Source: a virus | Reading direction: 5' to 3' (one strand) | Length of the DNA: 64,000 nucleotides | Virus record (IMG/VR): IMGVR_UViG_3300027902_000006 | Span: 32,001-96,000 of that record | In this document: positions 51,060-53,285 of the stretch, piece by piece | How the letters are laid out: each line of letters starts with the position of its first letter | Numbering within the stretch: the first letter of the stretch is position 1 | The notes under the pieces: model-generated | Seen by the model: the letters and a program-made list of their open reading frames with translations, nothing else | Told to the model about the DNA's origin: nothing | Database searches by the model: none | Translations under genes and position numbers: made by a program

Positions 51060-53285
51060 TCAACTACAATTACTCCAGCCACACCAAGGGCAAGTAGAAC
51101 ATCCTCCGCCCATATCCAATAATTCCCCACAGTCGGGGCACATGGGGCTGGCGATGGGAATCGAACCCGCAACCTGAGCCTTACAAGGACTCTGCTCTTC
51201 CGTTGAGCTACGCCAGCCTAACTTCCTTTTACGAATGACCTTAGCAATTCCGTCCGGAGGAGAAAGTATAGCTTGGCCATCATGCCAACCCGTCTTCTCA
51301 CCGATAATTCCTCGGAGTTGCTTCTCTACTTCTTCCCATGTAGCTCCCTTGTTAAGAGCCAGAGTGGCGAGTCTTCCTATCGCTGCGTTCATGGAAGATA
51401 GAGTACGTCCTTCTTTGCTGATTTGCGACCAAAGTTCTTTATACCCGGTCTCTGGGTCTTCAAAGAGATGGACATAAAGCGTACCTTCTCCTGTTCTGAC
51501 TCTATCCCTAGAACCTTCTAAGTAGTCGGGAGGTTCACCTGGGCCAAAGATCTTTTCTAAGAGTTCAACCTCGTCTCTCGTTTGCTTCACTTCTACGGCT
51601 TCTTTTTTATTATTTATGATTGTAACCCGAACCGCCTCTGCTACTACTTCGGGAGAGACAGTTCCCTTGACAGCCGGAGATTTAACTTCTCTTATATCAG
51701 TTTGGGCCTCTTCTTCTCTACTTCCTTGGCGATAGAAGGTTAGTCCTTTACAACCAAGGACATATGCAAGTTTAAATGCAGCATCAACCTCCTTGACAGT
51801 GGCGTCATGGGGAGCATTGATGGTTTTGCTTACCGCATTATCAACATGCTTCTGAAACGCTGCTTGCATCTTCACATGAGATACAATAGGAACATCTTTA
51901 GATTCTATCCAATAGGGGGGAATGGGATACTCTACACAAGCGTCAGTAAAACTCATGACAAATTCTTCGTACAACGGATGCATTACAATCAAAGTATCGT
52001 CAATAGCCTTCTTCTTAAATTCAAAAGCGAAGACTGGTTCAATTCCACTACTACATCCTGCTATGAGTGATAATGTTCCAGTAGGAGCTATCGTAGTACA
52101 GGTTCCATTACGTCGTCCTAATACTATCTCACCTTTTTCAATACCTAACTGTTTAGAGTAGTCATGAGCAGTAGTATTGATAATCCTCATGACGCGTTCG
52201 GCAAGTTCTAGACTCCCACTACTGCCATAGGTTATTTTCAACTTAATTAACATGTCAGCCCATCCCATTACTCCAAGACCGACCTTACGAAACTTCTTTG
52301 TCTCACGTTCGATCTCGGAGATAGGATAGTTATTGACATCTATAATATTGTCCAAGAATCGGATAGCTACTCTGACGACTTCTTTTAGTCTCTCTGTATC
52401 AATAGATCCATCTACGACAAAGTTACTGAGATTGATACTTCCTAGTGTACAACTTTCTGAGTTTGCTAAAATTTGTTCCCCACACGGGTTACATCCTCGT
52501 AGAGTCTGATAATCACGTAACGGATTTAGCCTATTTATTGTATCAATAAATAAAAGACCCGGTTCTCCATTTTCCCATGCACCATTAACGAGATATTCCC
52601 ACAATTGTAAAGCAGGTATCGTTGATGAATCTACTCCATTGAATCGTAGTGTCCAAGGCGTATCTTTTCCACTTAGACAATTCATAAAGATATCACTCAT
52701 ACAGACTGAGATATTGAAATGTCTAAGTTTCCCCTCTTTTTCTTTACAAGTAATAAATTTAATGATGTCTGGATGATCTATGTCTAGGAGGCCCATCTGT
52801 GCCCCTTTACGAACGCCTCCTTGTTCGATGACTTCTCCTACTACAAAGTCGAAAACGTTCATGAACCCCAATGGACCACATGAACGCCCCTTTGTAGTAG
52901 AAATTAACGATCCTTCTGGTCTAAGCCATGAAAAGTTATATCCTGTGCCACCACCATAGGCTTGAACCTCCACTGCATTCTTCAATACGTTGAAAATAGA
53001 TTCTCTACTATCTTCTATATCAAAATAAAAACAGGCACTAAGATTCCCATTATTAGCTCCTGCGTTTCGTAAGCATGGGGAGTTTGGTAAGAAGTCTAAA
53101 CTTGACATTATCTCATAGAATTTCATAGACCATTCGGCAAAGAGTATTCCGTCTTTCTCAGCACTCGCTACATGCTTCGCTACTCGCCAAAACATCTCAT
53201 TTGGAGTTTCTATAACGTTATCATTCTCGTCTTTAACGAGAATCCTGTTTTCCAGAACTCTAATCGCGTTTTCAGATAGTCTCAT
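51060..53285 (-). CDS. nrdJ: Class II (B12-dependent) ribonucleotide reductase with TSCPD and C-terminal Zn ribbon
   Basis: 'FLPNSP', 'LSAC', 'GGGTG', 'NPCGEQ', 'APTGT', 'AVSKTIN', 'KGLTFYR', C-terminal CPDCG...C..CGWSNC. Confidence 0.93.
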   Translation of the reverse strand: MRLSENAIRVLENRILVKDENDNVIETPNEMFWRVAKHVASAEKDGILFAEWSMKFYEIMSSLDFLPNSPCLRNAGANNGNLSACFYFDIEDSRESIFNVLKNAVEVQAYGGGTGYNFSWLRPEGSLISTTKGRSCGPLGFMNVFDFVVGEVIEQGGVRKGAQMGLLDIDHPDIIKFITCKEKEGKLRHFNISVCMSDIFMNCLSGKDTPWTLRFNGVDSSTIPALQLWEYLVNGAWENGEPGLLFIDTINRLNPLRDYQTLRGCNPCGEQILANSESCTLGSINLSNFVVDGSIDTERLKEVVRVAIRFLDNIIDVNNYPISEIERETKKFRKVGLGVMGWADMLIKLKITYGSSGSLELAERVMRIINTTAHDYSKQLGIEKGEIVLGRRNGTCTTIAPTGTLSLIAGCSSGIEPVFAFEFKKKAIDDTLIVMHPLYEEFVMSFTDACVEYPIPPYWIESKDVPIVSHVKMQAAFQKHVDNAVSKTINAPHDATVKEVDAAFKLAYVLGCKGLTFYRQGSREEEAQTDIREVKSPAVKGTVSPEVVAEAVRVTIINNKKEAVEVKQTRDEVELLEKIFGPGEPPDYLEGSRDRVRTGEGTLYVHLFEDPETGYKELWSQISKEGRTLSSMNAAIGRLATLALNKGATWEEVEKQLRGIIGEKTGWHDGQAILSPPDGIAKVIRKRKLGWRSSTEEQSPCKAQVAGSIPIASPMCPDCGELLDMGGGCSTCPWCGWSNCS
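51143..51217 (-). tRNA. tRNA-Thr(TGT) embedded in frame in nrdJ
   Basis: GCTGGCG/CGCCAGC, TA, GCTC/GAGC, GAGTC-CTTGTAA-GGCTC, GCGGG-TTCGATT-CCCAT, C73, CCA. Confidence 0.88.

Follow-up and report, generated by a model that had tools for sequence, protein, structure and literature searches.

The nrdJ locus and its product

The window analyzed here, a 64,000-nucleotide stretch of phage DNA, carries on its minus strand a class II ribonucleotide reductase (RNR) gene, nrdJ, and within it a tRNA-Thr(UGU) gene in the same orientation (Table 1). The true nrdJ start is probably the ATG at 53285 (residue 12), as judged from the alignment with relatives, which match the window NrdJ from residue 12 through residue 751/752. 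Pfam finds Ribonuc_red_lgN (PF00317), Ribonuc_red_lgC (PF02867; E 1e-107), and TSCPD in the nrdJ frame, and the thiyl-radical loop motif NPCGE, as CNPCGEQ, is visible in the translation; by family membership, the protein is presumably an adenosylcobalamin-dependent, active reductase. Recoding of TAG was considered as an explanation for the open frame and rejected because the frame is already open in code 11; the window has 21 frames of at least 300 aa, and the same number when TAG is read through. A scan for sigma-70-type promoters on the minus strand of 50700 to 53700 found nothing above chance upstream of the tRNA, with the caveat that phage promoters may differ.

Table 1. Features of the nrdJ locus, in window coordinates
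Feature	Coordinates	Strand	Basis and remarks
nrdJ, class II (B12-type) ribonucleotide reductase	51060..53318	(-)	Stop-free frame, 752 codons plus stop; ORF list, Pfam
Linker 1, residues 544-583, between reductase core and TSCPD	51570..51689	(-)	pLDDT <50; without tRNA in the window
TSCPD domain, residues 605-697	51228..51506	(-)	Pfam PF12637, E 8e-10; upstream of the tRNA-coded linker
tRNA-Thr(UGU), 75 nt including encoded CCA	51143..51217	(-)	ARAGORN and Rfam; NrdJ residues 701-726 (GWRSSTEEQSPCKAQVAGSIPIASPM)
C-terminal cysteine-rich zinc ribbon, residues 727-752	51063..51140	(-)	Translation; in frame behind the tRNA

An AF2 model folds the TSCPD domain confidently, with pLDDT falling below 50 only at residues 1-8, 544-583, and 702-722. 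Both internal linkers differ in length and sequence among aligned relatives. After the tRNA, the protein continues as CPDCG...CSTCPWCGWSNCS, and each of the ribbon cysteines (C727, C730, C740, C743, C746, and C751) is conserved without exception across 56 NrdJ sequences. The order of TSCPD domain, tRNA-encoded residues, and ribbon agrees with the initial annotation, in which the tRNA was said to encode the linker from the TSCPD domain to the cysteine ribbon.

A complete tRNA-Thr gene inside nrdJ

ARAGORN calls a tRNA-Thr(tgt) at this position, and the Rfam tRNA model (RF00005) matches it at 59.1 bits (gathering score, 29; E 7.8e-11), which lies inside the range of the five free-standing tRNAs of the window (34 to 75.6 bits) and supports the initial claim of a complete tRNA on the nrdJ sense strand. 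The acceptor stem has seven base pairs, all Watson-Crick (GCUGGCG/CGCCAGC), the D-loop contains GG, the anticodon loop is CUUGUAA (7 nt, with U33 and a purine at position 37), the T-loop is UUCGAUU, and a discriminator C precedes the encoded CCA. The T stem has one C-A mismatch and one G-U pair; the canonical tRNA elements were read directly from the sequence. The folding-energy z-score of the isolated 75-mer is -1.37, which we take to be uninformative for a tRNA. A second candidate in the same genome, a 'tRNA-Gly mimic' in a Mom-like gene, was rejected, with no tRNA found there by ARAGORN or by Rfam at E ≤10.

The A of CCA (51143) is indeed the A of an ATG codon, as first observed. The tRNA had also been described as lying in frame and occupying 25 codons; the first part stands, and the exact count does not, as the codon at 51218-51216 consists of G(-1)G1C2, placing the start of the tRNA one base out of codon phase so that 26 codons are touched.

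Nested tRNA genes in related phages

Four related phages, known from independent assemblies (NrdJ identity, 53 to 64%), also carry an in-frame tRNA inside nrdJ. Two of these (L001 and L325) have a tRNA-Thr(UGU) in the same TSCPD-ribbon linker as the window, L150 has a tRNA-Gln(UUG) in that linker, and L002 has an in-frame tRNA-Asp(GUC) in the equivalent of linker 1 (68.1 bits). The two tRNA sites in nrdJ are the only two internal segments predicted by AF2 to be disordered. The nested tRNAs of the five phages score 59.1, 66.4, 68.5, 55.4, and 68.1 bits with Rfam, and the free-standing tRNAs of the same phages mostly score 51 to 76 bits, with one weak Gly(GCC) at 34. All five encode CCA, their lengths with CCA are 75, 76, 75, 74, and 79 nt, and in every case the nrdJ frame is open across the tRNA, with no stop codon, and in phase with the conserved domain downstream. 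The nested tRNA-Gln of L150 shares its 5' acceptor strand (AGGGG) and 3' end (CCCCUG-CC) with a free-standing tRNA-Gln of L001.

The nested examples number five only and come from one small clade, about half of which is without a nested tRNA; the nrdJ tree does not resolve the clade base and needs at least three gains or losses of the tRNA. Approximately 290 further, more distant nrdJ loci (45 plus 80 viral, 80 metagenome, and 80 genome) contain no nested tRNA. The empty linkers of L002 (linker 2), L003, L151, and L153 have no tRNA remnant (Rfam, E ≤1), and no tRNA was found in P0218/L326, which is 266 aa long and whose last ~55 residues resemble the TSCPD end of NrdJ. Inteins are present in the NrdJ clade members L151, L325, P0009, and P0127.

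The contigs are metagenomic, and an assembly chimera or sequencing error might be invoked to join a tRNA to nrdJ, but five diverged sequences, produced by different projects and assemblers, share the architecture, which recurs across independent assemblies from IMG/VR, Logan, and ENA. We consider an artifact to be refuted by these assemblies. Neither is the arrangement accounted for by chance. Open sense frames across a tRNA are common, at 41% of the frames in 102 free-standing tRNAs, and by a rough calculation a random insertion would be both open and in phase at about 0.41 x 1/3. An in-frame tRNA that joins one conserved domain to the next, seen in each of five independent assemblies, is not common.

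It might be supposed that nrdJ effectively ends at the tRNA and that the ribbon is either a separate translation product or never made. There is an ATG exactly at the tRNA end in the window, a public gene call (P0126) splits the nrdJ of L002 at its tRNA to give a 198-aa product, and many phage nrdJ matches stop near residue 540 of the query. However, the frame is preserved without a stop codon in all five cases, the window's ATG is not preceded by a Shine-Dalgarno-like sequence (by eye), L150 lacks any in-frame ATG, GTG, or TTG from its tRNA to the ribbon at which separate translation could start, and the ribbon of a studied NrdJ is inactive when expressed separately (PMC5704485). A gene split at the tRNA is therefore highly improbable.

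Alternatively, the tRNA could be cut out and the mRNA halves religated, so that the segment would be intron-like and never translated. Phage RNR genes are known homes of introns and inteins, and cleavage by RNase P together with 3' processing would yield 3'-OH and 5'-P ends suitable for joining by an RNA ligase. Against this, only two of the five lengths are multiples of three, so that precise excision would break the frame in the other three whereas read-through keeps it in all five, and the sense-strand Rfam matches at the nested sites are to tRNA only, with no intron family. We regard excision at the RNA level as extremely unlikely.

Conservation of the RNA rather than the peptide

Across the three nested Thr copies, pairing is kept in 96.8% of stem cells, and 9 of 21 pairs show compensatory double changes; none of 500 shuffles equals this pairing and compensation, and slid controls pair at 35 to 54%. 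Eight compensatory pairs are found among seven members of the tRNA-Thr family. The copies of the window and its sister L001 have the acceptor stem, D stem, anticodon loop, and T-loop in common and differ at four anticodon-stem pairs, all four of which are compensated. Because of a 1-nt indel in the D-loop, the first 14 identical nucleotides specify GWRSS in the window and, in another frame, AGVAQ in L001, and it is thus the RNA and not the peptide that is conserved between the two. The linker sequence flanking the tRNA has diverged beyond recognition among relatives, in contrast to the tRNA itself, and comparison of nrdJ homologues, the check proposed in the initial annotation, shows a linker that is variable as protein and tRNA-shaped in relatives. 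Part of the covariation could be older than the nesting, should each of the three Thr tRNAs have entered nrdJ separately from a free-standing copy.

These patterns bear on whether the segment is simply a neutral relic, a once-inserted tRNA gene that no longer works as a tRNA and persists only as linker coding sequence. The linker can accommodate any sequence, the proportion of tRNA sense frames that are open by chance is substantial (see above), and the window copy has its T-stem mismatch, all of which are compatible with a relic. A relic is nonetheless very unlikely, given the nine compensatory pairs among nested Thr copies and their invariant loops, nested scores equal to those of free-standing tRNAs, a peptide that is unconserved even to the point of being read in another frame, the divergence of the flanking linker where the tRNA has not diverged, and the fact that the genome has no other tRNA-Thr.

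tRNA complement, ribosome rescue factors, and tRNA-His-like features

The nested tRNA is the sole tRNA-Thr among seven tRNAs in the phage genome (92% complete), and L001 has the same core tRNA set with its tRNA-Thr again nested. The codons ACA and ACT account for 26% and 45%, respectively, of Thr codon use in the phage (ACA/ACU, 71% together), and most of its tRNAs have U34 anticodons, fitting its A/U-ending codons.

The initial annotation also drew attention to GGQ and 'Pth2-like' proteins that could clear stalled ribosomes. The GGQ gene exists (46210-46578; RF-1 domain, 63 bits), but a specific link to nesting does not follow, because the same kind of gene occurs in the complete genome of the relative G003, where no tRNA is nested, and none was found in G001 (79% complete), which does carry a nested tRNA. 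The 'Pth2-like' assignment is weakened as well: the match is below threshold (18.3 bits against a cutoff of 23; E 0.003), and the PTH2 profile has no match in the genome at E ≤0.001.

A G at -1 that can pair with C73 had been noted as a hallmark of tRNA-His. Both bases are real, in the window and in L001, but the His-like identity drawn from them is unlikely because the anticodon is UGU rather than GUG, C73 is shared throughout a family of free-standing phage tRNA-Thr genes (only 1 of 12, L148, has G at -1), and the nested tRNA-Thr of L325 has U73 and T at -1.

Relationship to known systems

In literature searches for phage tRNAs nested in open reading frames, the only relevant case found was that of selC (tRNA-Sec) nested inside the selB open reading frame of Alphaproteobacteria (Mukai 2021, Int J Mol Sci 22:4605, PMC8124441), for which it was proposed that processing leaves a non-stop mRNA, so that tRNA and protein are alternatives (PMC8124441). 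In both systems, a whole sense-strand tRNA with CCA lies inside a stop-free open reading frame and is predicted to be translated, tRNA lengths are not always multiples of three, and both cases are bioinformatic predictions. They differ in that the selB/selC tRNA extends the protein at its C terminus and is followed by no further domain, whereas the nrdJ tRNA is internal, between two functional domains; SelB binds its nested tRNA, whereas the gene here is that for an unrelated essential RNR; and selB/selC is found in cellular genomes, whereas these are phages in which Thr, Gln, and Asp tRNAs are interchangeable and two linkers are used.

Ordinary phage tRNA genes are described as intergenic clusters in T4, T5, and many large phages (PMC2330249, PMC6409571). 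The nrdJ tRNA is of the same kind, and free-standing phage tRNA-Thr genes with an identical acceptor stem and C73 exist, but it lies within a gene rather than between genes, and the reading frame across it has to remain open.

The six-Cys C-terminal domain of Stackebrandtia NrdJ is essential and is inactive as a separate piece (Loderer et al. 2017, PMC5704485). The phage ribbon likewise has six cysteines with nearly the same spacing (C-x2-C-x9-C-x2-C-x2-C-x4-C) and is at the extreme C terminus on a flexible tether. In studied class II RNRs, however, the tether is ordinary protein-coding sequence, whereas the phage tether is a tRNA gene. Selfish insertions reported in phage RNR genes include inteins, group I introns, and homing endonucleases (PMC2988022, PMC3984707), and the nested tRNAs similarly represent foreign DNA that an essential RNR gene can accommodate. 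Introns and inteins are self-removing, at the level of RNA or protein, whereas the tRNA segment is proposed to stay in the protein product and to make its own useful RNA.

A probable dual use of one segment

We think it likely that the 75 bases have two roles, as a functional gene for a phage tRNA-Thr(UGU) and as coding sequence for a disordered linker tethering the essential ribbon to NrdJ, and selection appears to maintain the segment in both capacities. Ribosomes would read straight through the tRNA sequence to give full-length NrdJ, and nrdJ transcripts that are ribosome free or ageing would fold into a cloverleaf at the linker, from which host RNase P and 3' trimming enzymes would cut out the phage's only tRNA-Thr. 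Such processing would destroy the nrdJ message and leave a non-stop 5' part, and the tRNA and NrdJ would thus compete to some degree. The initial proposal that RNase P cleavage commits each transcript to either RNR or tRNA is plausible, but the two fates need not exclude each other, since one mRNA can serve as template for NrdJ and only afterwards be processed into tRNA; the competition is probably of this sequential type rather than a strict switch. The arrangement probably originated with a phage tRNA gene that relocated to the linker codons, where any sequence is tolerated, and the linker slot may since have been kept, swapped (Thr to Gln), or emptied, depending on lineage.

A stronger version of the same idea is that RNase P cleavage shuts down or titrates NrdJ synthesis as demand for tRNA rises, the nested tRNA being adaptive rather than a tolerated passenger. 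All five nested tRNAs found are in nrdJ, whereas 17 other tRNAs of these phages (G000, G001, and G003) are free-standing, none of them within a long frame; two different linkers of nrdJ are used; the linker-2 tRNA-Thr occurs in two separated branches of the clade; and the same logic has been published for selB/selC (Mukai 2021). We note, however, that our search was centered on nrdJ loci only, such that the specificity for nrdJ is partly a matter of ascertainment, that the tRNA is missing from about half of the clade, that its varying identity (Thr, Gln, and Asp) indicates no specific coupling of tRNA and RNR, and that the phage GGQ rescue factor does not co-occur with nesting. Adaptive regulation of this type is possible, but on balance we think it unlikely.

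More speculatively, the linkers may be heritable 'tRNA slots' in a programmed bifunctional transcript, in which ribosomes keep the cloverleaf unfolded while RNR is needed and RNase P makes the tRNA once translation falls; we hold this to be doubtful. If it is true, then dNTP supply and late-gene translation capacity would be coupled via one RNA, and tRNAs would come and go at the slot as exchangeable cassettes.

Under standard annotation, a given stretch is either a tRNA gene or protein-coding sequence, a rule that the nrdJ locus does not fit. Because the downstream domain must be covalently attached (PMC5704485), the ribosome would have to read through a tRNA gene that is under structural selection. 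What is new relative to the terminal appendage of selB/selC is the position of a canonical elongator tRNA, with a functional domain on either side, in the gene of an essential and biochemically understood enzyme. The locus thereby offers a testable system for the competition of translation and RNase P for one RNA, for the sequence freedom of disordered linkers, and for the movement of tRNA genes by phages.

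A tRNA-Thr gene within the nrdJ reading frame

The phage encodes a class II ribonucleotide reductase gene, nrdJ, whose frame matches the Pfam all-alpha and barrel domains (E 1e-107), codes for an NPCGE loop and a TSCPD domain (residues 605 to 697), and probably starts at the ATG at 53285. As proposed in the initial annotation, a tRNA-Thr gene lies entirely within this stop-free frame on the same strand, and its final CCA adenine doubles as the A of the ATG that opens the C-terminal ribbon. The codon phase is off by one base relative to the tRNA, such that the Gly-701 codon is G(-1)G1C2; the tRNA is translated as residues 701 to 726, and the ribbon cysteines (C727, C730, C740, C743, C746, and C751) follow immediately. 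The Rfam score exceeds the threshold of 29 bits (E 7.8e-11), and falls in the range of five free-standing tRNAs in the window. The acceptor stem has 7 bp, all paired, the D-loop contains GG, the anticodon loop and T-loop are CUUGUAA and UUCGAUU, the discriminator is C, and CCA is encoded in the DNA; the sole flaw is in the T stem, where a C-A mismatch adjoins a G-U pair. No other tRNA-Thr occurs in the 92%-complete, 140-kb phage genome, in which ACA and ACU are the favored Thr codons (71% together).

Coordinates of features in the window and in other nrdJ loci (L-handles)
Feature	Sequence	Coordinates	Strand	Basis
nrdJ, class II ribonucleotide reductase	Window	51060-53318	minus	752-codon stop-free frame; Pfam domains
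tRNA-Thr(UGU)	Window	51143-51217	minus	ARAGORN; Rfam tRNA model, 59.1 bits
Stand-alone RF-1/GGQ-domain protein, 122 aa	Window	46210-46578	minus	63 bits; inside tRNA cluster
Weak PTH2-like ORF	Window	45505-45864	minus	18.3 bits; inside tRNA cluster
Amber-suppressor-type tRNA (CUA)	Window	45439-45514	minus	59.4 bits
Tight packing around tRNAs	Window	46578-46654	minus
Mom-family DNA-modification gene	Window	48853-49548	minus	PF25680, E 3e-29
"tRNA-Gly mimic" (rejected)	Window	49430-49505
Free-standing tRNA by nrdJ	L015	2675-2749
Free-standing tRNA by nrdJ	L028-L031	2719-2796
Free-standing tRNA by nrdJ	L012	5750-5831
nrdJ divided by gene call	L002	4735-5400
nrdJ with intein	L151	3001-6201
nrdJ with intein	L325	2092-6399
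P0218, 266 aa	L326	1519-2319

All six ribbon cysteines are invariant among 56 NrdJ sequences. In Stackebrandtia NrdJ, all six C-terminal cysteines are essential, and activity is not regained when the cysteine domain is supplied as a separate protein (Loderer et al., PMC5704485). An AlphaFold2 model built from 56 sequences has a mean pLDDT of 83.6, with values below 50 confined to residues 1 to 8, 544 to 583, and 702 to 722. The latter two segments are the linkers that hold tRNAs in this clade (linker 1, between reductase core and TSCPD; linker 2, between TSCPD and ribbon), and both vary freely in length and sequence across relatives.

Nested tRNAs in related phages

Scanning IMG/VR with the window NrdJ identified 49 nrdJ loci. 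The nearest of these, L001 (64% identity), carries a tRNA-Thr(UGU) at the same position (66.4 bits) in an open 757-codon frame, and its phage has the same small tRNA set, the nested one again being Thr. Locus L002 (60% identity) has an in-frame tRNA-Asp(GUC) in linker 1 (68.1 bits). Protein searches yielded two more, both in linker 2: a tRNA-Gln(UUG) in Logan contig L150 (55.4 bits) and a flawless tRNA-Thr(UGU) in ENA contig L325 (68.5 bits). CCA is encoded in all five. Neither tRNA nor remnant is detectable by ARAGORN and Rfam in the nrdJ genes of L003/P0008, L151/P0006, and L153/P0007, nor in P0009 and P0127-P0129, for which linker peptides were judged by eye only. Viral, metagenome, and genome collections supplied about 290 less closely related nrdJ loci, none with a nested tRNA, and the 17 other tRNAs found in the window, L001, and L003 genomes are all intergenic.

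The ten full-length NrdJ proteins of the clade group with 100/100 support, with the window and L001 as sisters (95/99) and L325 as the sister of the tRNA-free subclade. Resolution is lacking at the clade's base, and at least three gains or losses of the nested tRNA are required. The L150 nested tRNA-Gln matches the free-standing tRNA-Gln of L001 at the 5' acceptor strand (AGGGG) and the 3' end (CCCCUG-CC), suggesting that tRNAs from the phage's own set relocate into the nrdJ linker slot. In more distant phages, nrdJ has free-standing tRNAs (Gly, His, and Leu) no more than a few hundred bases away, and tRNAs and nrdJ are thus often neighbors.

Inteins bearing LAGLIDADG or HNH endonuclease signatures also occur in nrdJ within the clade (L151, L325, P0009, and P0127), as do a CPKCGHKNCG insertion within the TSCPD domain of P0006 and a Cys/His-rich insertion in linker 1 of P0009. 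In P0218, a TSCPD-like end is joined to an unrelated N-terminal part; its final ∼55 residues share 72% identity with the TSCPD end of the window NrdJ, the likeness stopping at ...IRKRKLG, the point where the tRNA begins in the window. No tRNA was detected at that locus (L326), and P0218 may be a chimeric assembly or recombination product.

Selection on the RNA and on the reading frame

Across the nested Thr tRNAs of the window, L001, and L325, pairing holds in 96.8% of stem cells and 9 of 21 pairs have pair-preserving two-sided changes; none of 500 shuffles reaches this level, slid controls are paired at 35 to 54%, and the result is unchanged when five free-standing phage tRNA-Thr genes that share the acceptor stem are included. 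The window and L001 tRNAs share acceptor stem, D stem, anticodon loop, and T-loop, and four of the five anticodon-stem pairs are replaced, every one compensated. One extra D-loop base in L001 means that the same first 14 nucleotides are read in different frames, as GWRSS in the window and AGVAQ in L001, with the shift taken up by the flanks. As judged from these alignments, the conserved object is therefore the RNA, not the peptide; the linker varies as protein while the tRNA structure is kept, the pattern that the initial annotation had proposed to look for among homologs. We consider it shown, at the level of sequence, that a real tRNA gene is maintained here.

The reading frame through the nested tRNAs also appears to be under selection. 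An open frame through a tRNA means little alone, since 41% of sense frames are open across 102 free-standing tRNAs. All five nested tRNAs, however, are open and in phase with the conserved downstream domain, each with a chance of roughly 14% for a random insertion (a rough calculation, 0.41 x 1/3). In L150, no start codon lies in frame between tRNA and ribbon. We regard it as shown that active NrdJ would require the ribosome to read through the tRNA. Were the tRNA instead precisely excised from the nrdJ mRNA like an intron, the frame would be preserved in two cases but broken in three (lengths of 75, 76, 75, 74, and 79 nt), which argues against excision.

Translation factors and neighboring genes

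The initial annotation had linked GGQ and Pth2-like proteins to the nesting. The GGQ protein is indeed encoded, but shows no specific tie to nesting: relative G003 has a similar gene ∼3 kb behind nrdJ yet lacks a nested tRNA, and no such gene was found in G001, where a nested tRNA is present. The Pth2-like match falls short of the Pfam cut-off. G-1 opposite C73, read as a tRNA-His hallmark, is present in the window and L001 tRNA-Thr genes, but is absent from L325 and all but one free-standing relative, and the anticodon is not that of His.

The genome is very densely packed near its tRNAs, and the earliest possible start of the GGQ ORF (TTG at 46578) is one base past the tRNA-Gly(UCC) 3' end (46580). 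The amber-suppressor-type tRNA adjoins a weak tRNA-Gly(GCC) (34 bits) without a spacer. Global TAG recoding seems unlikely, because reading through TAG leaves the window with 21 frames of at least 300 aa in either reading, and 11 frames of at least 150 aa end in TAG. A "tRNA-Gly mimic" in the 5' codons of the Mom-family gene yields no ARAGORN call and no Rfam match at E<=10.

Expression and precedent

No promoter-like site lies immediately upstream of the tRNA-Thr, and RNase P together with 3' trimming thus probably releases it from nrdJ transcripts; the E. coli tufB operon is an example of tRNAs cotranscribed with mRNA. After processing, a non-stop 5' mRNA fragment would remain, so that translation and tRNA maturation would compete for the transcript. 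We favor sequential use, in which translation would come first and tRNA harvest after, over a strict either/or.

Full-text literature searches for tRNAs nested in ORFs returned a single relevant precedent, selC within selB, which Mukai presented as the first case of a tRNA nested in a bacterial ORF and for which the same competition was put forward. There, the tRNA is a terminal extension and the host protein binds it, whereas in nrdJ it is internal to an unrelated essential enzyme; unlike selB/selC, the nrdJ case is found in phages and its tRNAs are interchangeable.

In L002, the public gene call divides nrdJ at the tRNA-Asp, placing the start of the 198-aa TSCPD-plus-ribbon part (P0126) within the tRNA 3' end. 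This split is an annotation artifact, and such splits conceal genes with nested tRNAs.
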